Shown: positions 1,334-61,161, numbered from the stretch's first letter. The stretch is DNA of 64,000 bases from an uncultured Candidatus Saccharibacteria bacterium (GCA_964523355.1 CAZFZV010000001.1:2213-66212), one strand, 5' to 3'. Notes: generated by a model not told the origin, from the letters alone. Translations and numbers: made by a program.

Positions 1334-1870
1334 CTAAATTTCGAACTCGTAGATTGCGGCGTTTTGGTAGTTGGGGACGTTGCTGGTGGGGAGATGTTTG
1401 AGAATCATCGTAAACCGCTTCATAAGGCCATTAGAACTGACGATAAGAATCGTAGCATCTCTAGGATAAGAATGTTGTAGGCTCTGCAGAAAATCTGCGG
1501 CACGGGCATGGAATTCGCAGATCGGCTCAACACCAAATGCGTCAGAGTTGAGGCCGATGTCGAGAAAATCAATCTCATTATCGAACAGTGCTGAAGGTGA
1601 GCCGCCTTCAAACTGCCCAGCATTGCGCTCGTTCAGACGGCTATCAATGATTATTGGCTGGTTGTCAGCAATAATTTCAGCAGTCTTGCGCACACGTTGG
1701 AGCGGCGAGGCGTAAATTGCATCGAACCGCAAATTACGCTGACGGATTTGGTTACGCAACGATTGAGCTTGAGCAATACCAACAGCGTTAAGCGGAATAT
1801 CGGATTGCCCCTGAAGACGATTGGCAGCGTTCCAATCAGTTTGGCCGTGACGAACGAGGTAAAGTTTCAT
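1334..1870 (-). CDS. Histidine phosphatase (phosphoglycerate mutase-like) family protein
   Basis: LVRHGQT motif, ASPLQR, RLNER; GGAGG RBS. Confidence 0.9.
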   Translation of the reverse strand: MKLYLVRHGQTDWNAANRLQGQSDIPLNAVGIAQAQSLRNQIRQRNLRFDAIYASPLQRVRKTAEIIADNQPIIIDSRLNERNAGQFEGGSPSALFDNEIDFLDIGLNSDAFGVEPICEFHARAADFLQSLQHSYPRDATILIVSSNGLMKRFTMILKHLPTSNVPNYQNAAIYEFEI

Positions 1871-1885
1871 AATATCCTCCTAGCG

Positions 1886-2458
1886 TTAATTAATCTTGTC
1901 ACCCTCGGAAGCGTCGCCGAGGTTTAGAAACTGATTGTTCCAGGGTTTGGGCGAAGAGTCATCGAGGCTGCAGGTATAAATAAGGTATTGTTGTGACTTC
2001 TCTGGCGTATCTTCGGCGGTATATGTTTCGCGCAGAGGCATGATCTTGTCGTATAGACTAACCGCAGGACGTCCGGGGAAATAGGTAGTATCAATACGAA
2101 AATATTTATAAGCGCCAAGACGGCGACAATATGCGATAGTATCGAGCAGCACTTGGCGACCAAAATGCTGACCACGAAACTCTGGCAAGATGGCAAACCA
2201 GTCCATCCAAATCGATGCGCCATGGTCATAACCCGGCTCGTCGGAATCAAAAGTAAAAACTCCGGTAAGACCTACTAGCTCACCCTGATGATAAACTAAC
2301 CATGAGACATTACTCATGTCGTCTGGGTAGAGAGGTTTGCTCAAATAATCTGCATCAACTTCCTCGCCTGGCCAAATCTGATGCTGGACCTCCAAGGCAA
2401 GTTGAAGGTTGGTGGTGTCTACTTTCTTGTATGTCAAATCTCCGGTTTGGCTTTTCAT
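1886..2458 (-). CDS. GNAT family N-acetyltransferase
   Basis: Acetyl-CoA motif A: FAILPEFRGQHFGRQVL. Confidence 0.75.
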   Translation of the reverse strand: MKSQTGDLTYKKVDTTNLQLALEVQHQIWPGEEVDADYLSKPLYPDDMSNVSWLVYHQGELVGLTGVFTFDSDEPGYDHGASIWMDWFAILPEFRGQHFGRQVLLDTIAYCRRLGAYKYFRIDTTYFPGRPAVSLYDKIMPLRETYTAEDTPEKSQQYLIYTCSLDDSSPKPWNNQFLNLGDASEGDKIN

Positions 2459-30767: not shown

Positions 30768-31004
30768 TGTTAAAATTGGTATGTGGAGTGATTGGCTTTT
30801 GTCCGTAGCGGGAACGTGAATATTAACGACGGCAGGGTTAACTACGTCGGCGAGTGGGGCTGGGATTGGTCGCGTACCGCCCAATCATCTACCAACGCTT
30901 ACAACCTACAGTTCGGCGTATCCGCCATCAACCCGTCAAACAACAACAACCGTCGGAACGGTTTCCCCCTCCGCTGAGTATTTGCCGGTTTGGTGCCGAT
31001 CTTT
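30768..31004 (+). ncRNA. DGR-template-like cassette 1 (leader largely missing)
   Basis: TGTTAAAAT promoter, GTGG at 30783, template 30792-30974 (LAFVRSG...GFPLR, 11 AAC codons), 3' motif CCGGTTTGGTGCCGATCTTT at 30985-31004. Confidence 0.75.
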
Positions 31005-31042
31005 CATAGAAAATACTCCACAAAAGTGGAGTATTTTCTATG
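31005..31042. terminator. Probable bidirectional terminator between cassette 1 and tRNA-Lys
   Basis: Perfect 17-bp stem CATAGAAAATACTCCAC/GTGGAGTATTTTCTATG. Confidence 0.8.
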
Positions 31043-31117
31043 GTGAGTCGGGAGGGGCTCGAACCCTCGACACCCTGCTTAAGAGGCAGGTGCTCTAACC
31101 AGCTGAGCTACCGACCC
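31041..31117 (-). tRNA. tRNA-Lys(CTT)
   Basis: Cloverleaf, anticodon loop CT-CTT-AA, encoded CCA. Confidence 0.95.
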
Positions 31118-52470: not shown

Positions 52471-52522
52471 GGTTATATATTATTATAGCACTGAACCAAT
52501 AAAATCACAGTATGCCCGGTTA

Positions 52523-52953
52523 TGCTAAAATAGGAACGTGGATGTAGCAGTCCATGGGAACTGCGGGCGGTTTTTGAGGTCAGGCTCCAATCTCCAGAAG
52601 TTCTCGTTTCTCAAAGATCGTGAGGTTGCGCTTCTACGATAAAGGATATTATTGGAAGTCTAGATTTCGAGCTAAGTCACGGTTTAGTCTCGCACAAAGT
52701 AGCCTCTTTGCTTGGGTTGTAGCTCATAGTTGGTTTTCTGGCTTTTGTCCGTAGCGATGCTATCCGCCTTAACGAGGGCACTGTCGGATACGCTGGCAAC
52801 AACGGGTACGCCTGGTCGCGTACGGCTAAATCGTCCACCAACGCCTACAACTTGGACATGAATCCTACAAATGTCAACCCGTCGAACGCTAACAACCGCT
52901 GGTACGGTTTCCCCCTCCGCTGAGGAGTTACCGGTTCGGTGCCGATCTTTGAG
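52523..52953 (+). ncRNA. DGR-template-like cassette 2
   Basis: TGCTAAAAT, GTGG at 52538, 200-nt structured leader, template 52738-52920 (LAFVRSDAIRLNEG...RWYGFPLR), 3' motif 52931-52953. Confidence 0.8.
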
Positions 52954-52966
52954 CAAGGCGTTATCA

Positions 52967-53400
52967 TGATAGAATGAGAGAGTGGGCATTACCCATGGGA
53001 ACTATAATAAGCACTTGAGGTCATGCTCCGGCTGATTGTCGTTCTCTCGTTCAAGATCGTGAAGCCATTCTCTAAGCTTATTAGGAAAGTAATCTCTAGA
53101 GGATAGAAAGTTAACTCTAGCTAAGGTTAGAGCTGTATGTAGTTGGCTTCTTTTTCCGTATTGACGATGGATACTATGGATTTATGCATTTGGCTTTTGT
53201 CCGTAGCGGGTATGTTAATCTCCCTGGCGGCAATATCAACAACGTCGGCCACAACGGCTACGACTGGTCGCGTACGGCGAACTCAGCTACCAACGCCTAC
53301 CGTCTGAACTTCAACCCTACGGGCATGAATATGAATGCTGAAAACCGCTACTGGGGTTTCTCCCTCCGCTGGAGAACTGCCGGTTCGGTGCCGATCTTGA
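52967..53400 (+). ncRNA. DGR-template-like cassette 3
   Basis: TGATAGAAT, GTGG at 52982, 208-nt leader, template 53190-53369 (LAFVRSGYVN...RYWGFSLR), 3' motif 53380-53400. Confidence 0.8.
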
Positions 53401-53442
53401 TGATTATATAAAAAATAAGAGTCGATAGGCTCTGCTTGCGTA

Positions 53443-53458
53443 TTGGTGGGGGCGGTTG
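53443..53458 (-). repeat. Duplicate of the tRNA(CAT) 3' end (att-like)
   Basis: TTGGTGGGGGCGGTTG is identical at 53443-53458 and 53501-53516. Confidence 0.8.
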
Positions 53459-53501
53459 ATCAGCGTAAAAAATGAGAACCAAATGGTTCTTCTTTTAGCG
53501 T

Positions 53502-53577
53502 TGGTGGGGGCGGTTGGGCTCGAACCAACGACCAAGCGGTTATGAGCCGCCTGCTCTAACCCCTGAGCTACGCCCCC
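53502..53577 (-). tRNA. tRNA with CAT anticodon, most likely tRNA-Ile2
   Basis: Cloverleaf, loop CT-CAT-AA, paired 1-72, overall resemblance to Ile2-type tRNAs; tilS is present in the window. Confidence 0.85.
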
Positions 53578-53635
53578 AAGGATATATATATATTATATAT
53601 TTATTTCTAAGAGACAACAAGGTCTTAAAATTGCA

Positions 53636-53730
53636 GGCGACAGCCCTTGAACTGGCGAGGATAGCGAATAGAAAGAATGCTAGCATTCTTTCTTGAGCGA
53701 CGCAGCCAGCAAATGGGCGACAGCCCTTGA
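53636..53730. repeat. 15-bp direct repeat flanking a 24-bp palindrome
   Basis: GGCGACAGCCCTTGA at 53636 and 53716; AGAAAGAATGCTAGCATTCTTTCT between them. Confidence 0.7.
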
Positions 53731-53772
53731 CAATCCCCTAAAGTTTTGCGAGAATAGGACTATTGTTGGTTG

Positions 53773-53862
53773 TTACCGCCGTCGTTTCCGTACGACGGTA
53801 ACGTTAATTTTGAACAAGGTGAATCTAAACGCAAAGCGCCAGATTCGGAACTTGATCTCCAT
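53773..53862 (-). CDS. 29-aa cationic/aromatic small peptide
   Basis: MEIKFRIWRFAFRFTLFKINVTVVRKRRR preceded by AGGAGGAAGGAGG. Confidence 0.5.
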   Translation of the reverse strand: MEIKFRIWRFAFRFTLFKINVTVVRKRRR

Positions 53863-54155
53863 CAGAGCCTCCTTCCTCCTTTCCCCATTTTGTTAACTGA
53901 TGCTAATTGCCAGGACTGATCGCCCTGCATTCAACTTAGCACAAAGTGAGTAAAAGTTGCAAACATAGGCGTCTTTATAGTTGCAACAATCTGCTTAAGA
54001 TTGCTTAATATGCTATTTTGTAGTAGAATTAAATAACTATTGATTGATAGAAGAATCAAGGACCTTAAAATGATAAAGACAGTTCAGTTATTGTTCTGAG
54101 GTTCTCTAATCTTCTACATCAATCTACAACTATAAAATAAAAAGGAGTGGAAAAA

Positions 54156-55280
54156 ATGAAGAAAAGATTTTTTGTAGCATTGATGGTAGTAGCATGTTTG
54201 ACGCTTGGAGGGTGCGGAGATAGCAATACTTCGGTTGATAATATGGACGCGGAAGTACACGAGAGCGAAGATGTGTTGGAGGCGGAAGATATTACAACGG
54301 AAGATTCTGAGGTTGACATGTCAGAAGAAGAAACGGATGGGGGTGATGAGGAAAGTAATGCTGAGGTAAAAGGGATTGTGGCGATGGTATCACGCGCAAC
54401 GATACATTCAAATACTATTCAAATCATTAGTATTGACCCGGACACTGGCATTCAGGAAATTATTTCCGAATTTCTTATAAAAAGTAATAGTGACGAGGCT
54501 TACCAACGGGCGGATAACCGGGTCGTAACGCGTAACTGGTTTTCTAATGATTATACCAAGATGGCTATCAGCAAGCGTTTTTTAAATGCAAGTCAAAGTT
54601 ATCTAAATGAGGATCATGCTGGGTGGATTGATACTAACGGAGACTTTTTCGATATGACCGAAGCGAGCGGACTGAGACCGGAGGACACCTTTTCTAATAC
54701 GGACGTGCTGAGACACAAAACACTGGGGTTTTTCGATGATGACTTTGTGTTTTTAGATACCGCAACTGAGAAAGTCTACTACATGCCGTTTGATAATGTC
54801 TCCGAAATGGGAGCTGCTGAGTTAAGCGAAGAAAACGACTATATATACATGTATCTGCTTAAGCACCCAGTAAACGTACGGCCAACGTGTCAAATTGATG
54901 AACATACCTATATTGTAGACCTTGGGATCGATCAGACATCCAGACCTAGTCCTCTCAGTGTTATTTACGATTTTGATACCGACGAGGAGAGATCATATAT
55001 TCCAGAGAGTAGTCGCTGGAATTGGAGTGGAGTCATGAGTCCGGACGGAGATATGGTAGCCTTTTTCTCGTCGTTGAAAGATGGTATGGGGAAGGTAGAA
55101 CTATACAAAGTGCCATCGTCTGGGGGTGAACCAACGAAGATTACGTTAAAAGCCAATGACGACGTGATTGTGGATTTGACTGCATTACCCGCTCCGTCAT
55201 ACGAGCATCCATCTGGTGGAGTGGATGATTTTCTTAAGCTTCATGATGCTCAATATTGTCGTTTGTTGGAGTGGAGATAA
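54156..55280 (+). CDS. Lipoprotein with acidic linker and TolB/PD40-like C-terminal repeats
   Basis: Lipobox LGGC, SPDGDMVAF, LYKVPSSGGEP; AAGGAG RBS. Confidence 0.75.
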   Translation: MKKRFFVALMVVACLTLGGCGDSNTSVDNMDAEVHESEDVLEAEDITTEDSEVDMSEEETDGGDEESNAEVKGIVAMVSRATIHSNTIQIISIDPDTGIQEIISEFLIKSNSDEAYQRADNRVVTRNWFSNDYTKMAISKRFLNASQSYLNEDHAGWIDTNGDFFDMTEASGLRPEDTFSNTDVLRHKTLGFFDDDFVFLDTATEKVYYMPFDNVSEMGAAELSEENDYIYMYLLKHPVNVRPTCQIDEHTYIVDLGIDQTSRPSPLSVIYDFDTDEERSYIPESSRWNWSGVMSPDGDMVAFFSSLKDGMGKVELYKVPSSGGEPTKITLKANDDVIVDLTALPAPSYEHPSGGVDDFLKLHDAQYCRLLEWR

Positions 55281-55300
55281 TTAAGAAAGGTGGGATGAAA

Positions 55301-55804
55301 ATGACAATACCTAATATTACACAGCGTCGGAAGGCGAAGGTATCCAGTGCGTCAGAACAATCGATAAAGTTACCGTTTCAGAAGCGGATTGCGATTCGTA
55401 ACCCAAACCGACATTATGTCGGAAGCAGTTCTAAGGGTGATTGTCATATTTGCGGGAGATGTATGGGCAACGATAATTGTGTTCCGTGGTATGAAAGCAT
55501 GTGTGAGAGGTGCCGCCAACGATATATAGATGATCTGGCCAATGGGTGGACAACAACTATTTCGGAAGAAATTGACCCAAAGTACCAAGTTGTACTTTGG
55601 CGATTTCAGCAATGCATACTGTTTGACCTAAAAGATGAGAAAATCTCCGAAGCAGAAGCACGTGAAGAATTAAAGGAAGTGGTTGGCATTGCACGAATAG
55701 AAATTGACAAGATAAAACGCCAAGAAGTGGAGCGCACTGCCCGGTCTAATGAATGGGAATCTGAGTCGCAGCAAATAAAAAGTCTCTCTCACCGCCTTTT
55801 GTAG
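55301..55804 (+). CDS. Hypothetical protein with Cys cluster (possible Zn finger)
   Basis: CHICGRC...C...CERC; AAAGGTGG RBS; start could also be 55295. Confidence 0.55.
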   Translation: MTIPNITQRRKAKVSSASEQSIKLPFQKRIAIRNPNRHYVGSSSKGDCHICGRCMGNDNCVPWYESMCERCRQRYIDDLANGWTTTISEEIDPKYQVVLWRFQQCILFDLKDEKISEAEAREELKEVVGIARIEIDKIKRQEVERTARSNEWESESQQIKSLSHRLL

Positions 55805-55887
55805 GCAAGTATCTTCTTCAGCTGTCTTTATCTTCAAATCCGAATAGAGTCGAAGCACAGCTGCTTCGCCTATTCAAAGAATGCTTA

Positions 55888-55915
55888 TGCCCGGTTCTCT
55901 ATGGAGGACCGGGCA
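55888..55915. terminator. Hairpin between convergent genes
   Basis: TGCCCGGTTC/GGACCGGGCA. Confidence 0.65.
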
Positions 55916-55923
55916 AAACTTTT

Positions 55924-58900
55924 CTATGGGAGAATAATGCCGCCACCGTTATTGTTGTTTCCACCTCCATTGTTGTGCTGGCGCATCTGACGCTCAAAGT
56001 CGCGAATCTGTGAACCAGTTAGGTCGCCATTTTGACCGTTACGAGGTATAACAATACCACTGTCATTTTCTGTGAAACCTCCAGGTACTGGCGCTGAATT
56101 GCCTGAATTATGTTGTACGTGAAGTGAGTATGGAATTTCTGTACGGCCGTCAAGCGCGCGGATATTATTTAGCTTCATCGCTGATTCTTGCGTTAATGTA
56201 ACTGCCCCATTATTGGCAGCATTCAATGTTGCTTCGGCAATATTAGCCAATTGTGCGCGTTCATCAGCGCCAATAGACCCAGAGCTAATACTAGCAGAGA
56301 TGCGATTTAGCTCAGCCTGACTCGCATTCGCCATAGAACGTATGCTGGTGTTATCAACCGTGCTAACACTGGAGTTGCTACCTGTCCCTCCCGTAGGTGC
56401 ATCGTACTCCATATTGGCAATTGTATTGAGGCCGCGGCCAACATCACCTTTCACAGCAATATTTTCGTTATTCATCGCTTCACGAGCTTGAGCGATCAAA
56501 TTATTGCGCGCTTCACCTTGAATATTACCGTTTCGGAGGCCTTCAATAGCCATGCGACGGTATCCATCATCAGTATTAGCGAGTTGTTCTGCGCCAATAT
56601 CTCGCGCTTTCTCTTGTAGGTAGTTCTTGTTTGCAAGAAATGTGTTTCCGTCATTATCATGTGTCGATATGATATCGGATGCATTATAGGCGTAGCTTCC
56701 ACTGGCGAGTTTATTAAGGTTCTTAAATGTGTTTGGATTCTTAGCCTTATAATCACCTCCTGCCGCATTCCGTACAGCGCTAGCTGCCCATTGGATGCCT
56801 TTGTTGGAGGTTTCGCCAGCGAGCGCGGAAGCACGTACCCCACCGTTAAGTACACTGTCAACATACTGCCGACCTGCGTCGCTTGTATTAAGGTTATGCA
56901 TTGCTGATGTAAATCTTGCCCTTGCGTCAACATTTGTGCTGTCTGCCCTAAGCTCATTCAACGCCTCCTCGAGCTTCGCAGCAGCGGAGCTTTCCTCTGC
57001 GAATGTCCCATCGTTTTCCCAAGCATCCGTATAATCCTTAGCTAGCTCCATCACATGCCTTTGAGTAAATGCGTCTGTACGGTCGCGATTTGCCAGATCT
57101 TGCGCTAAGACGGCATTCTGTGCTCGATTACTGCGGCGATTATGCGAACTTTTAGCCATGCTTGCCAACCGTCCGTTACCTTGACGCATTCGAGCATTAA
57201 TGCCCTCCATCGGATGCATAACATTGTTTAGCCAACGCCGCCGTCTGCCTAATTCGCGATTCTGCTCACGATTAATATATCTTTGCGCATTATGACCGGC
57301 TAGTCGAGCTTGGCGATCTCTGTAGCCCTCTGACCGACGAATTCCGCCCGTGACGCTGTGGCCCAAGCGACTTCCAAATGTAGAAAGTTTGGTTCCCAGA
57401 TTCCCCATGGCCTGGAATGAACTTTTTAAGATTGTGGGCACGAAGAAAATCGGGATAGCTTGAATTAGAACAGAAACGAACACATAAAATATGCCCGAAT
57501 CACCATTAGCATTCGCTAGTAATAACTTTGATGCAAACTGTCCTCCACCCATTAAAGCTCCACAAATTGGATACACAATTAGCATTCCAAAGAACAGCTT
57601 CCACCAACGGTTAAAGACATTCTTCGTGTTCGGGAGCGCATAACAGATTATTGCCAATGGCGATAACGCAACTAAGATAATGATCGCTGCTTGGCGTACG
57701 CCAAGCAATAAGAAAAACGCCAAAATACTAATAATCCCTACGATAAGCAGAAGTACAAACGGCATAATCCAGAATTCAACCGTATTCGCAAGTGCAATCC
57801 CACTCCCGACGACAAGTGCTGCTGAAACTACCGTGGCGATAATTGCGCCCAATCCACCGTTGCCATATTCGCTACCGATTGATACTCCTTCGCTAATGCC
57901 AACAAATAGTTCTTTAATATCGTGCCCGATGATATTTGATAAGTCGACGGCAATTTGACATAGGAAAAAGGATAAATTAACAAGTACCGCTACTAAAATC
58001 AAGCTCGGTAGCATCTTTTTCACACCATAATTACTAACACCAAACCCTGTAATCTGCGAGAGGATAATGACTAGAAGAGCTATTGCAAAAGCAATATTAG
58101 CCAAATTACGGAATGTCTCCCAAGCTTGGTGTGTGCCACTAGTGTCGTTGACATATTCGACGTCGGTCTGGAGATAGCTCTGCTCAATAAAATCGTAAAA
58201 CCAATCGGCCGCTTTACCAAGTGCTTGTACTACTGGGCAAACAATCCAACCAAGTGCACCAGAAGCCTTAGAGCAGGGGCTAGCCTCTTCTTGTGTACCG
58301 CCGCCATCATTATTCGCGTCATCCGTAATATCACCAACGATATCGTCAGTTGTGGTGTCATTACCGCTCTCGTCTTTGTCTTTTTCGGTCTTATCAAGCG
58401 CTTTTTTGACAGCTGGAGCGGTATCGTTAATACGCTCAACGGCGCCATCGCAAGTGTGTTTCCCGGATTTCTTGCTCACCCAGCTACTGTCCCAATCGTT
58501 CTTAACGATATCTTGGTTAGAGTAATATTTCTTCTCCATTTTGCCGGTGCTAGGATTCGGAACCTTAACTTCAAAGTAGTTGTTTTTATTCATCAAATCC
58601 GGATCACCGCTATAAGGACTTGATTTGCTACAAGCGGTCGTAAAATCATTGAAGTACAAGAAATAATTAATTAAGTCGTCTGTGAAAGTTCCCCGATCTC
58701 CCCATGAAACCAGATAGCTATTGCTTTTCTTTTTGTTATTGTAGAGCTTTTTCACATGATCCATCGCTCCATCCGTATTCAGCCAGAATGTAATACCATC
58801 TTGTCCGATCGCATCGCTACATTTAGCAACTTTGTCGCCCCTAATACCACCATTGCTAAAATAAGGCACCAACAGACCGGGTTTGTCGCCATCGCAAACC

Positions 58901-59298
58901 AGCTCTTTCTCGGAAATACCTAGTGTAGACTTAAATAGATTCACTAAGTTTTCGCTATTATCATCGCAATATATCGTCCCATTATTAACCTTGCCCTGTA
59001 TTTGGTTTTCCAGCCAGGCTCCAGTCGGTATTTCGATATGTTCTCCCCAACCTCCAAGACTATTAAAGAAATTCTTGCTAGGGTTACCGCCAGAATATTG
59101 TATAGAGGCATCTTCTTCAACTTTCTGCTTGACGCACTTACTGAACACATTCGCCACTAACTGAATTTTTCCGGCTTCTTTCATCTGGCTCAAAGCTTCT
59201 GAGGTCTTGATCGCCATTACTTGCGAACCAATTACTGTGCCGAGCAGCGTAGAAATGACCGCTGCCCAGATTACAAATTTTTTCCAGCCGTTTTTCAT
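55924..59298 (-). CDS. Large VirB6/TrbL-like membrane protein
   Basis: Signal/TM helix, Cys-containing ectodomain, LGWIVCP, AWETFRNLAN, multi-TM core, long low-complexity C-terminal tail. Confidence 0.7.
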   Translation of the reverse strand: MKNGWKKFVIWAAVISTLLGTVIGSQVMAIKTSEALSQMKEAGKIQLVANVFSKCVKQKVEEDASIQYSGGNPSKNFFNSLGGWGEHIEIPTGAWLENQIQGKVNNGTIYCDDNSENLVNLFKSTLGISEKELVCDGDKPGLLVPYFSNGGIRGDKVAKCSDAIGQDGITFWLNTDGAMDHVKKLYNNKKKSNSYLVSWGDRGTFTDDLINYFLYFNDFTTACSKSSPYSGDPDLMNKNNYFEVKVPNPSTGKMEKKYYSNQDIVKNDWDSSWVSKKSGKHTCDGAVERINDTAPAVKKALDKTEKDKDESGNDTTTDDIVGDITDDANNDGGGTQEEASPCSKASGALGWIVCPVVQALGKAADWFYDFIEQSYLQTDVEYVNDTSGTHQAWETFRNLANIAFAIALLVIILSQITGFGVSNYGVKKMLPSLILVAVLVNLSFFLCQIAVDLSNIIGHDIKELFVGISEGVSIGSEYGNGGLGAIIATVVSAALVVGSGIALANTVEFWIMPFVLLLIVGIISILAFFLLLGVRQAAIIILVALSPLAIICYALPNTKNVFNRWWKLFFGMLIVYPICGALMGGGQFASKLLLANANGDSGIFYVFVSVLIQAIPIFFVPTILKSSFQAMGNLGTKLSTFGSRLGHSVTGGIRRSEGYRDRQARLAGHNAQRYINREQNRELGRRRRWLNNVMHPMEGINARMRQGNGRLASMAKSSHNRRSNRAQNAVLAQDLANRDRTDAFTQRHVMELAKDYTDAWENDGTFAEESSAAAKLEEALNELRADSTNVDARARFTSAMHNLNTSDAGRQYVDSVLNGGVRASALAGETSNKGIQWAASAVRNAAGGDYKAKNPNTFKNLNKLASGSYAYNASDIISTHDNDGNTFLANKNYLQEKARDIGAEQLANTDDGYRRMAIEGLRNGNIQGEARNNLIAQAREAMNNENIAVKGDVGRGLNTIANMEYDAPTGGTGSNSSVSTVDNTSIRSMANASQAELNRISASISSGSIGADERAQLANIAEATLNAANNGAVTLTQESAMKLNNIRALDGRTEIPYSLHVQHNSGNSAPVPGGFTENDSGIVIPRNGQNGDLTGSQIRDFERQMRQHNNGGGNNNNGGGIILP

Positions 59299-60287
59299 TA
59301 CTCCTCCAATTTCTCGATTACCCGCTGCATCGCGTCAACTACGGCATTCTCCTCACCATAAGTAATCTCGTCATTCTCATCGTACGCAAAGAAAATTGCC
59401 TGCGGCACGGAAAAACTTTGACTCATCGATTCTAGAGTATCCTTGTAGTCTGCGACAATCTCCGTACAATCCGCAGCAATACTATTGCCATCTAGCGCAC
59501 AGTTATTCGCATCCATTGCGATCTGCAAATCTTTCTTCTCTTGGACAAACTCATCGAACCGCTCCGCTACGGTCGCTATAGTATAGTTCTCACTTGTCAG
59601 ATAATCTTTGAGAGGATCGGTGTTCTCGGTTTTGTAAACAGTATACAGTATATTGTATAAGTCCACGGATTGTCTAAAGGCTCCGGCCTGCTTCGCTAGG
59701 GTGTCCTGTATTTTTTTCACATCGTCGCGCACCTCTGTATCAAGCTTGTCAGCATTGAACTTCGTAAGCTTATCTCGAAATTGAACGAACTGCTCAATAT
59801 TTTGATTAAGCATATCTCGTGTCTCGGGATTCATAATGTCATTGGTGGTTTTTTCGCGAAAATAGACGTCCTGGAAGAAAGACTCAATTTGACGTGTGGA
59901 GTTAAGATTCTGCTGGAATAGGGCTAAGATATCTTGATTATTGTTTTTGAACAAAAACGGCAGGGTTATTAATAGGACAAATAGACCCACTGCTCCAACA
60001 ATTAAGGCTATGATTAACGGTCTTCTATTGCTACGGGGTCTATTATTGACTACCACATCCCCCTCCCCACTGCCTACTGTCTGTATTGGGTGTAGGGGGT
60101 CTGTCGGCAAGGGAGCGTTCAGCGGCGTCGGAGGAGTGAGGTTGGCGGAGGAAATGATTTTATTGTTGGCGGTCGAATCTGGGGAGACTAGAGAATTTGT
60201 AGGGTGGGTGGGTGGCTGAACTGGAGTATCAAACGCGTCAGCGTTTCGCGCTCCGGCCGTGCCCAAAGAATCCTTACCTTCATCCAT
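59298..60287 (-). CDS. Single-pass membrane protein coupled to the VirB6-like gene
   Basis: Pro-rich N-terminus, one TM helix, helical ectodomain; TAATG overlap at 59298. Confidence 0.7.
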   Translation of the reverse strand: MDEGKDSLGTAGARNADAFDTPVQPPTHPTNSLVSPDSTANNKIISSANLTPPTPLNAPLPTDPLHPIQTVGSGEGDVVVNNRPRSNRRPLIIALIVGAVGLFVLLITLPFLFKNNNQDILALFQQNLNSTRQIESFFQDVYFREKTTNDIMNPETRDMLNQNIEQFVQFRDKLTKFNADKLDTEVRDDVKKIQDTLAKQAGAFRQSVDLYNILYTVYKTENTDPLKDYLTSENYTIATVAERFDEFVQEKKDLQIAMDANNCALDGNSIAADCTEIVADYKDTLESMSQSFSVPQAIFFAYDENDEITYGEENAVVDAMQRVIEKLEE

Positions 60288-60371
60288 ATTTATTATGTTA
60301 GCATAATCGGCATGTGATGACAAGTTGGGATTTTGTGAATGACGTGAGCGGAAAATGTTGTCGAGTTGATG

Positions 60372-60446
60372 CTAGAGTCTGCCACTGCATCCGCCGAGCA
60401 TGGGACAAGCCACTACCAATAACGCTACTATCTTTCTTCTCCGCAT
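60372..60446 (-). pseudogene. Truncated lipoprotein remnant (signal peptide only)
   Basis: MRRRKIVALLVVACPMLGGCSGRL-stop with GGAGGTGG RBS; closely resembles the N-terminus of the 54156 lipoprotein. Confidence 0.55.
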
Positions 60447-60538
60447 ATTACCACCTCCATTCTCTGCGGCATTGGTCTACAAGTTGCGTGAATCTTCTGG
60501 TAGCACGTAATGCTCCAGATTGAGTAATTTTTCCTCAT
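60428..60538 (-). CDS. 36-aa small ORF of unknown function
   Basis: MRKNYSIWSITCYQKIHATCRPMPQRMEVVICGEER after AAGGAGG. Confidence 0.35.
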   Translation of the reverse strand: MRKNYSIWSITCYQKIHATCRPMPQRMEVVICGEER

Positions 60539-60681
60539 TGCTTCTTATCCTCCTTCTTGTCAATGTACTTATTCCCAGTGGGTAGTCCTCCGATTTTACT
60601 ATGATTCCCTATTTTATGCAATTATAAGCGGTTTCAAGAGTATTTCATCCCTCTAATGGTACGAGCGTGAGTTATCATACA

Positions 60682-61112
60682 TGCTAGAATGAGACTGTGG
60701 ATAAAAATATCCATGGGGTCTGAAGCGGTTCACTGAGTTTTTACTCCAACTAGCGAATGCCCTCAATAATTGAAGATCGTGAAGTTACTCTCTAATCCTA
60801 GACAGGAAAGGGTCGAGAAAAGCTGCTTGGGCCTAGCTATGGCTAGTCACCACTTGAAGTAACTTCTTTAGTCTGAGCTTGCATCGGATAACGTTTTGGC
60901 TTTTGTCCGTAGCGGGGTTATCTATCCCAACAATGGTACGGCTGGCAACGTCGGCAACAACGGCAACTGGTGGGCGCGTACTGCTAAATCCGCTACCAAC
61001 GCCTATGATTTGGGCATGAATCCCTCCAATGTCAACTCAGAGTCAAATAATAACAACCGTTATCATGGTTTCTCCCTCCGCTGGAGGTTGCCGGTTGCGG
61101 TGCCGATCTTTG
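60682..61112 (+). ncRNA. DGR-template-like cassette 4
   Basis: TGCTAGAAT, GTGG at 60697, 199-nt leader, template 60896-61081 (LAFVRSGVIY...RYHGFSLR), 3' motif 61091-61112. Confidence 0.8.
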
Positions 61113-61132: not shown

Positions 61133-61161
61133 ACAGAACCCCTCCTTGCGGGGGGTTCTGT
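61133..61161. terminator. Terminator between cassette 4 and the convergent surface-protein gene
   Basis: ACAGAACCCCT...GGGGGTTCTGT stem. Confidence 0.75.

Follow-up and report, generated by a model that had tools for sequence, protein, structure and literature searches.

The leader-template units described here, found in a 64,000-nt window of DNA from an uncultured Candidatus Saccharibacteria bacterium (GCA_964523355.1 CAZFZV010000001.1:2213-66212), have their closest described counterpart in the RNA of the Bordetella phage BPP-1 diversity-generating retroelement (DGR). That RNA comprises the 3' end of avd, the template repeat (TR) and a 140-nt spacer, Sp, and is cis-primed (bioRxiv 10.1101/2023.10.23.563531; NAR 2018 PMC6182149). 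One strand of the spacer forms a duplex with the 3' end of the template, and the 2'-OH of that strand's last nucleotide serves as the primer; 2 nt further, the spacer forms a second, 'stop' duplex with a segment upstream of the template. The template is looped out between these duplexes, and Avd and the reverse transcriptase (RT) are bound by stem-loops at either end of the spacer, an upstream:downstream duplex being predicted for 207 other DGRs as well (bioRxiv 10.1101/2023.10.23.563531). That flanking RNA on both sides of TR is needed in this phage DGR, a point of background in an earlier reading of the window made from the DNA letters alone (the sequence-only reading), is published. The published DGR survey would miss a scaffold lying upstream, because it inspected only 40 nt upstream, together with 100 nt downstream, of each template. 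In the present window, three of the four copies of a TR-like cassette follow a structured leader of ~180 nt, and we consider it likely that such a leader-template unit is a DGR template RNA with a structured upstream scaffold.

Leader-template units of the window

A repeat of ~185 nt is present four times in the window, always on the + strand (copies c1 to c4). It starts with TTGGCTTTTGTCCGTAGCG and ends with GGTTTCYCCCTCCGCTG, and in the window copies GGTGCCGATCTT lies ~20-30 nt beyond its end. Read in frame, it gives the C-terminal half of a FISUMP/C-type-lectin-like domain (LAFVRSG..NNGY.WSRTA.S.TNAY..N..NR..GFSLR) with 8-11 AAC codons per window copy, matching what is expected of a DGR TR. 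A stop-codon-rich stretch of ~200 nt lies ahead of the repeat in c2, c3 and c4, each of which is composed of an extended -10 box, a ~180-nt leader, a ~185-nt TR and a ~30-nt tail with CGATCTT. The leader is predicted to fold in two domains, the P1 hairpin with nested P2/P3/P4 and a P5 stem closing P6 and P7; between the domains lies one strand of a long-range duplex (LR) whose other strand is in the tail. The features of these three units are as follows.

52523..52531, + strand: c2 extended -10 box TGCTAAAAT, 6 nt ahead of P1 (a generic promoter scan agrees)
52538..52605, + strand: c2 leader domain 1, P1 hairpin and nested P2/P3/P4 with a conserved UGAGGUCARGCUCC hairpin
52610..52620, + strand: c2 LR 5' strand CTCAAAGATCG, 11 bp with 52943-52953, covarying across lineages
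52622..52706, + strand: c2 leader domain 2, P5 closing the P6 and P7 hairpins, P7 loop UANG
52738..52922, + strand: c2 TR-like cassette, 9 AAC codons, without a start codon
52923-52942, + strand: c2 tail, two small hairpins
52943..52953, + strand: c2 LR 3' strand CGATCTTTGAG
52967..52975, + strand: c3 extended -10 box TGATAGAAT
52982..53150, + strand: c3 leader (P1-P4 52982-53046, LR 5' strand 53051-53059, P5-P7 53061-53150; 136.9 bits)
53190..53371, + strand: c3 template repeat
53392..53400, + strand: c3 LR 3' strand CGATCTTGA, 9 bp with 53051-53059
60682..60690, + strand: c4 extended -10 box TGCTAGAAT
60697..60866, + strand: c4 leader (P1-P4 60697-60764, LR 5' strand 60771-60779, P5-P7 60781-60866; 114.3 bits)
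60896..61083, + strand: c4 template repeat, its peptide 98% identical to cassettes of three other genomes
61104..61112, + strand: c4 LR 3' strand CGATCTTTG, 7 Watson-Crick and 2 G.U pairs
61139-61155: terminator-like hairpin downstream of c4
P1, + strand: c2 52538-43/52550-55; c3 52982-86/52992-96; c4 60697-703/60708-14
P5 multibranch stem, + strand: c2 52622-29/52699-706; c3 53061-67/53144-50; c4 60781-88/60859-66

All four window copies have a TGnTAnAAT box exactly 6 nt ahead of GTGG, and the same box stands at the same fixed distance of 6 nt from the GTGG of P1 in 34 of the 35 leader-bearing units that we examined in the window and in related genomes, the sole exception (L015:157) lying at a contig edge. 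Each unit is probably an autonomous transcription unit for a cis-acting template RNA of a DGR whose RT is encoded elsewhere in the genome. The c2 unit continues into the c3 promoter, with no terminator between the two.

Covariation of the leader fold

The leaders of c2, c3 and c4 are 49-54% identical, and helices P1 to P7 and LR are common to all three. The sequence-only reading had seen just this, little primary identity and the same helices; every helix that it listed was found, and its elements lie at the coordinates it gave or at most 1 nt away. P1, the GAG..CTC hairpin (P4) and the multibranch stem (P5) are each present in the three leaders. For P2, the pairing GGGAAC/GTTCTC proposed for c2 and c3 stands, but the c4 version contains one U-C mismatch. 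The small 3' hairpins (CTCC..GGAG and CCG..CGG) do occur in all four window copies, as had been noted, but are not a general feature: in the window clade they were found in ~18 units out of 30, and six diverged units lack them altogether.

Homologous loci, labeled L001 to L054, come from other metagenome-assembled genomes (MAGs) or metagenome contigs. The cassette peptides, run against species-representative genomes, identified 38 loci, nearly all of them in Saccharibacteria MAGs, and further units came from an RT-based metagenome scan and from exact-protein look-ups. Covariation was counted on MAFFT alignments of whole units with a structure of 55 pairs in 8 helices, using 32 units or a set of 36 that includes four units detected by the covariance model only; in the controls, 3' partners were moved by 1-3 columns (slid) or the columns were shuffled 500 times. 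In the 36 units, 86.4% of pair cells are paired, compared with 36-48% when partners are slid, and 328 cells are double-compensatory, compared with 73-108, with a covariation score of 0.430. The 32 units give 87.3% (36-48% slid), 281 double-compensatory cells (57-90 slid) and a score of 0.422 (about 0.10 slid). Covariation in a larger alignment, which the sequence-only reading had asked for, is present, with 0/500 shuffles attaining the observed paired cells, double changes or covariation score in the 36 units and again 0/500 in the 32. These results confirm that the leader fold is real and more than chance.

The cleanest helices in the 36 units include P5 (93.8% paired, with 6 of 8 pairs compensated), P7 (91.3% paired, 7 of 7 compensated) and P1 (91% paired), and RNAalifold recovers P2 to P7 de novo, without a supplied structure. 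Among the pair cells, G.U outnumbers A.C by 182 to 56; the strand that folds is therefore the + strand RNA, running downstream from the -10 box. As had been suggested as a check, a covariance model was built for the leader, with 180 positions and 43 pairs; it matches only c2, c3 and c4 in the window. It finds homologous units in other Saccharibacteria genomes and metagenomes, among them units outside its training set in L036 (104.8 bits), L020 (101.3), L026 (82), L044 (74.9) and L054 (104), as well as the L046 unit and at least eight tandem units in L053.

A long-range duplex across the template

The core of LR is AAGAUCG:CGAUCUU, its 5' strand lying between the two leader domains and its 3' strand behind the template. 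An 8-bp core forms in 36/36 units, and nine compensated sequences of it occur; counted over 48 units, 43-44 have a perfect 8-bp match and the other 4 have G.U at the eighth pair. Control 8-mers from the leader have a downstream complement in 0.4% of cases. Within the window clade the core is invariant and compensation is confined to outer positions (A-U, C-G, G-C, G.U); fully compensated versions of the core were found in diverged lineages.

UAGGAUCG:CGAUCCUA, compensated LR core in L020, L026 and L036
CAGGAUCG:CGAUCCUG, compensated LR core in L045
UUAGGAUUG:CAAUCCUAA, compensated LR core in L044
UUUUGGGAUUG:CAAUCCCAAAA, compensated LR core in L031
GGAGAUCG:CGAUCUCC, compensated LR core in seven units of L053

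These versions strengthen the earlier proposal that the leader pairs with a 3' motif and loops out the template. The lengths proposed for the window duplexes, 11 bp in c2, 9 bp in c3 and 7 Watson-Crick plus 2 G.U pairs in c4, also hold, except that the 3' arm in c4 is at 61104-61112, not 61103-61111.

The inner 5 bp are the most conserved part of LR in the 36 units. Its leader strand ends in an invariant G, and an invariant C stands just 5' of its tail strand. A single nucleotide separates LR from P5, and the template leaves the fold between two 3' strands, that of P5 and that of LR. Tails range from 10 to 35 nt across units. In the window copies a 4-bp hairpin stands 2 nt ahead of the LR 3' strand; in the six diverged units the tail hairpins are absent, with only 4-12 nt between the template end and LR, and in L026 the LR 3' strand begins 4 nt past the end of the homology between TR and its variable region (VR).

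Association with a DGR-type reverse transcriptase

In related genomes an RT gene adjoins the same leader-template unit, which supports the DGR setting that the sequence-only reading had supposed. The RT, with the motifs IGNLTSQ and YVDD, is followed directly by -10 box, leader and template in L004, L012 and L013 (one locus per MAG), L031 and L045. In L004, L012 and L013 the RT is 405 aa long (L012:8572-9789), with an RVT_1 match. Its best relative among solved structures is 8ub7_A (a 328-aa RT with nine entries; E = 7.7e-21), which we take to be the Bordetella phage RT, the database label being only 'Reverse transcriptase'. Drt2 scores 3.9e-8, retron RTs score 8.7e-5 or weaker, and the NCBIfam retron model lies far below its cut-off. 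Among nine metagenome loci with RTs 63-77% identical to the query (L039-L047), seven have no leader directly after the RT; L045 has one there, and in L044 and L046 the leader is ~770 nt downstream. Related genomes hold one DGR-type RT and many dispersed or tandem leader-template units.

The window organism occurs in rat and mouse gut. A 3.5-kb metagenome contig is ~84% identical to the RT and its accessory gene, and its depth compares with that of the window genome as 20.3/20.9 and 125.5/118.6 in two metagenome runs. The accessory gene, a 325-aa open reading frame (ORF), overlaps the RT start and is translationally coupled to it (L012:7598-8575). A small ORF beside the RT-linked unit, L012:10312-10731 (-), matches Pfam CdiA_C, a toxin-like C-terminal domain, and another at L044:~1700-2090 (+) resembles it as judged by eye only.

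Templates, variable partners and a mosaic

In a census of 50 cassettes, 35 carry a leader and a CGATCTT tail and are Asn-rich (template-like), 14 have neither leader nor tail, are diversified and have ..GATTIVQLPLA upstream (variable-like), and the remaining one is window c1, with a tail and no leader. The lectin-like reading frame is open in 50/50, and conserved end blocks of 18 nt and 17 nt are common to all cassettes.

Leader-bearing templates have VR partners that differ at adenines. The TR of L012 and the VR at L018:16900 mismatch at 4 of 130 non-A and 11 of 48 A positions, and the TR of L026 differs from the VR of L033, which lies in an 805-aa protein, at 17 A sites and 1 non-A site. The partner of c2 is a 294-nt metagenome contig at genome depth (110) with 19 differences, of which 12 of the 16 listed are at adenines (binomial P about 1e-4); a second sample of this organism does not contain the contig. 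For c3 there is a partial partner, a contig covering 53209-53300, in which adenines account for 6-7 of the 9 differences. Since c2 and c3 have adenine-biased partners and an RT contig occurs at genome depth, the window's orphan units behave as live templates. No variable copy of the repeat was found in the 64-kb window. Of the 14 leaderless VR-like cassettes in the loci, 13 are without a counterpart among the templates fetched, with 3-9 non-A mismatches per 30 nt; one TR/VR pair and one mosaic are all that could be documented in this clade.

In that mosaic, the VR at L018:16860-17119, the flanks come from the RT-linked template L012:9966-10240 with adenine-only changes, and the middle ~28 nt are identical to an orphan template of the same MAG, L005:7740-8019 (-), with no adenine changed. 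This one mosaic hints at several templates feeding one target; DNA recombination could also give it.

The conserved 5' block (53190-53212; also 52891-52936) is at 13-23x genome depth in metagenome runs X1 and X3, from which we conclude that the genome or co-resident strains hold a dozen or more extra cassettes. One tandem array, L053:1-3868 (ENA ERZ14651336, at the end of a 29.9-kb contig), has at least eight leader-template units ~450 nt apart, each with a TATAAT box and with their own version of LR (GGAGATCG/CGATCTCC). Leaderless diversified cassettes lie at L001:10237-10814, L002:10237-10657, L003:10535-10714, L014:7052-7453, L018:8946-9740 and L018:15958-17082, where they form convergent or divergent pairs with short ORFs of 85-141 aa. 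L001 and L003 share a cassette body in opposite orientations (+ strand in the former, - strand in the latter), suggesting shufflon-like inversion between inverted 18-nt end blocks.

A protein search with the cassette peptides returned 84 database 'proteins', all of them ORFs of 63-111 aa on cassettes, and no long target proteins. Pfam PF26707 (DUF8237) matches ORFs called on such cassettes, including L053:2516-2797, and part of that family may be built on untranslated template repeats.

The c1 copy and the surroundings of the units

The first copy retains the ends of a unit and little of its leader.

30768..31003, + strand: c1, with -10 box TGTTAAAAT, 6-nt spacer, GTGGAG (the first 6 nt of P1), TR 30792-30976 and CGATCTT tail

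An internal deletion has taken ~195 nt, so that the box and the first six leader bases remain and are followed by the repeat; c1 has no match to the leader covariance model. Loci syntenic to c1 (L016, L019 and L021, likewise with tRNA-Lys next) carry full leaders and other cassette content. Cassette bodies appear to move between loci, because the content of c1 matches L017/L018 and not the syntenic loci.

A tRNA-Lys (31041-31117) lies directly downstream of c1 and a tRNA-Met (53502-53577) directly downstream of c3, both on the opposite strand; the template units are therefore wedged between convergent genes. Between tRNA-Met and an ORF at 54147, a conserved non-coding stretch (53610-53900) contains repeated GGCGACAGCCCTTGA; its homologue in another MAG flanks a leaderless cassette (L014:653). 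Exact-protein look-ups with two window genes, made to extend the contig, returned no record.

Proposed mechanism and alternatives

In the mechanism that we favor, AAGAUCG pairs with CGAUCUU, looping out the template and bringing its 3' end beside the leader, which most likely recruits the RT and sets the start and stop of DNA copying. LR would then be the template:primer duplex, with priming from the invariant G (or the following U) at the end of AAGAUCG and the invariant C before CGAUCUU as the first base copied. P5, one nucleotide on, would be the equivalent of the 'stop' duplex, with both of its strands upstream of the template, and P6/P7 and P1-P4 may serve as protein-binding grapples. Mapped in this way onto the Bordetella phage DGR RNA, the unit would be a circular permutation, with the order around the circle being P5 3' strand, template, LR 3' strand, [RNA ends], P1-P4, LR 5' strand, P5 5' strand and P6/P7. 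The mapping is suggested by the L026 LR strand 4 nt past the TR/VR homology, by the diverged units, which have no room for another duplex, and by the greater conservation of the inner 5 bp of LR. Even if the general role is right, we hold this mapping tentatively, at a little short of an even chance. The resulting cDNA across the template, with errors at adenines, would replace a variable cassette sharing the A-poor end blocks TTGGCTTTTGTCCGTAGCG and GGTTTCCCCCTCCGCTG. Held more loosely still is the broader possibility of a multi-template DGR, in which one RT would be served by about a dozen autonomous promoter-bearing RNAs with a permuted scaffold, either dispersed or in tandem arrays of eight or more. 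Because these blocks are common to all templates and variable cassettes, each template could then overwrite whichever variable cassette it met; mosaics would arise by template switching or by partial homing in successive rounds, and cassette-style combinatorial variation would be combined with adenine mutagenesis.

Several observations weigh against reading the units as DGR template RNAs with this scaffold. No RT lies in the 64-kb window. The 325-aa ORF has no Pfam, NCBIfam or PDB sequence match, and no Avd homologue was detected by sequence; Avd is common, not universal, in DGRs. For c4, no partner was detected in the metagenome contigs. Metatranscriptome contigs have an even depth of 2-7, from which transcript ends or enrichment are unreadable. 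P2 and P3 have recurrent mismatches (83% and 71% paired), the cell counts overstate independent events because many units are orthologues from three close MAGs, and LR covariation rests on about six diverged lineages, the core being invariant in the window clade. Single-sequence folding energies of the c2, c3 and c4 units are non-significant (z = -0.27, -1.96 and -0.52, respectively), and the minimum free energy fold of c4 lacks the long-range duplex; single-sequence folding was dropped as evidence. Finally, since ~30 nt of tail separate the end of TR/VR homology from LR in the window clade, cDNA started at LR would carry a non-homologous 5' stretch.

The alternative that survives best, which we think unlikely without dismissing it, keeps the DGR role and wires it differently, with LR as the phage 'cPRT Stop' clamp and the tail as primer, for instance through the CCG..CGG strand 5' of CGAUCUU. 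The phage upstream:downstream duplex is indeed a stop element, of the kind predicted in 207 DGRs, and the 4-bp hairpin of the window copies stands 2 nt ahead of the LR 3' strand just as the phage primer strand stands 2 nt before the stop-duplex strand. What tells against it is that the six diverged units, without tail hairpins and with a gap of 4-12 nt, have no room for a separate template:primer duplex, and that ~125 nt, P5-P7 among them, separate the LR 5' strand from the template downstream, so that a polymerase leaving the template would meet P5 first.

Two further readings are both highly improbable. In retrons, an inverted repeat flanks structured RNA and template, and the unit could be cast as a retron-like RNA in which LR would correspond to repeats a1/a2, the leader to msr and the cassette to msd, with multicopy single-stranded DNA (msDNA) made for defense and not for diversifying a protein; here, too, an inverted repeat flanks structure and template, and an invariant G directly follows the 5' arm. 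However, the RT is of DGR type (8ub7 at 7.7e-21 versus retron RTs at 1e-4 or weaker), the lectin-like frame of the template is open in 50/50 cassettes, variable partners differ at adenines, and P1-P4 lie outside the inverted repeat, 5' of it. Equally hard to sustain is the proposal that these are DNA-level recombination sites for cassette shuffling or inversion, with an incidental RNA fold. The common 18-nt and 17-nt end blocks, the convergent pairs of leaderless cassettes, the identical cassette body in opposite orientations in L001 and L003, and the VR that is a mosaic of two templates with no adenine changes in its middle all speak for recombination, which may coexist with an RNA function. 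As a full account it leaves the leader unexplained: G.U exceeds A.C three to one, seven further leader helices covary, the LR arms are not at the unit ends, and a fixed promoter stands ahead of the units (34/35 examined).

It is scarcely credible that the leader is a 5' untranslated region, riboswitch or small RNA controlling a short cassette peptide, for all that gene callers report 63-111-aa ORFs on cassettes and c3 has an in-frame ATG, given that c2 is without a start codon, that Shine-Dalgarno sequences are missing from all units, that the ORF encodes just the C-terminal half of a domain, that the leader's pairing partner lies beyond the ORF and that Rfam gives no match. A trans-splicing or group II intron leader was rejected, with no same-strand upstream exon, no domain V/VI and no Rfam hit.

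Significance and comparison with known systems

In the whole window only four tRNAs reach Rfam gathering scores, and a permissive threshold over 52480-53430 gave two sub-threshold chance matches only. The upstream scaffold, the covariance-supported family, the autonomous promoter-bearing template units and the many templates per RT are undescribed in the literature searched, in PMC5758913 (Wu et al.) and in Rfam, in keeping with the earlier suggestion of an undescribed noncoding RNA family. The principle of clamping a template is not new, because the Bordetella phage duplex and the duplexes predicted for 207 other DGRs are published; what is new here is the upstream, putatively permuted, multi-copy form of the scaffold.

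The units would represent a second, independently evolved DGR template RNA arrangement, with the duplex logic of the phage and different connectivity, and could serve as a natural experiment on which RNA elements cis-priming, processivity and termination require. The covariance model detects DGR templates without a nearby RT or variable repeat, which should be useful in the fragmented assemblies of the CPR, where templates get called small hypothetical proteins. That templates can be multiplied and uncoupled from the RT raises the question of whether episymbionts mix cassette choice and mutagenesis to vary surface lectin-like proteins, and the compact modular scaffold may lend itself to engineered multi-template DGR mutagenesis.

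Compared with the BPP-1 DGR, the template here would likewise need flanking cis RNA, upstream and downstream sequences pair to loop the template out, and two duplexes are adjacent (2 nt apart in the phage, 1 nt here); the RT is of DGR type, with 8ub7 as its best relative, and TR/VR differences are adenine specific. Unlike in BPP-1, the template is preceded by a structured RNA of ~180 nt and followed by a tail of no more than 10-35 nt, the two termini of the RNA are at the other duplex (a putative circular permutation), each unit has its own promoter, possibly far from the RT, with many templates per genome, and there is neither a recognizable Avd nor sequence similarity to Sp. The likeness to retron msr-msd lies in an a1/a2-like inverted repeat around a structured RNA that is followed by the template and in a conserved G beside the 5' arm, self-priming from a 2'-OH being common to retrons and the phage DGR; the RT belongs to another clade, however, the template is protein coding with variable partners, and the repeat does not enclose the extra P1-P4 domain. 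One RT and dispersed components are found also in DGRs with remote or multiple targets (Treponema, Legionella and the CPR 'B3' DGRs, PMC5758913); the CPR lineage and variable regions of the C-type-lectin type are further points in common. In contrast to these, it is the templates that are multiplied here (4 in the window, 8 in tandem in L053), each with scaffold and promoter. Finally, silent-cassette systems such as pilS/pilE and vls resemble the present one in that partial copies of a gene, numerous and untranslated, share conserved end blocks, and at least one variable copy here is a two-donor mosaic, but the donors here would be transcribed with an RT scaffold and the differences are adenine biased, so that transfer is probably via cDNA and not by DNA recombination only.

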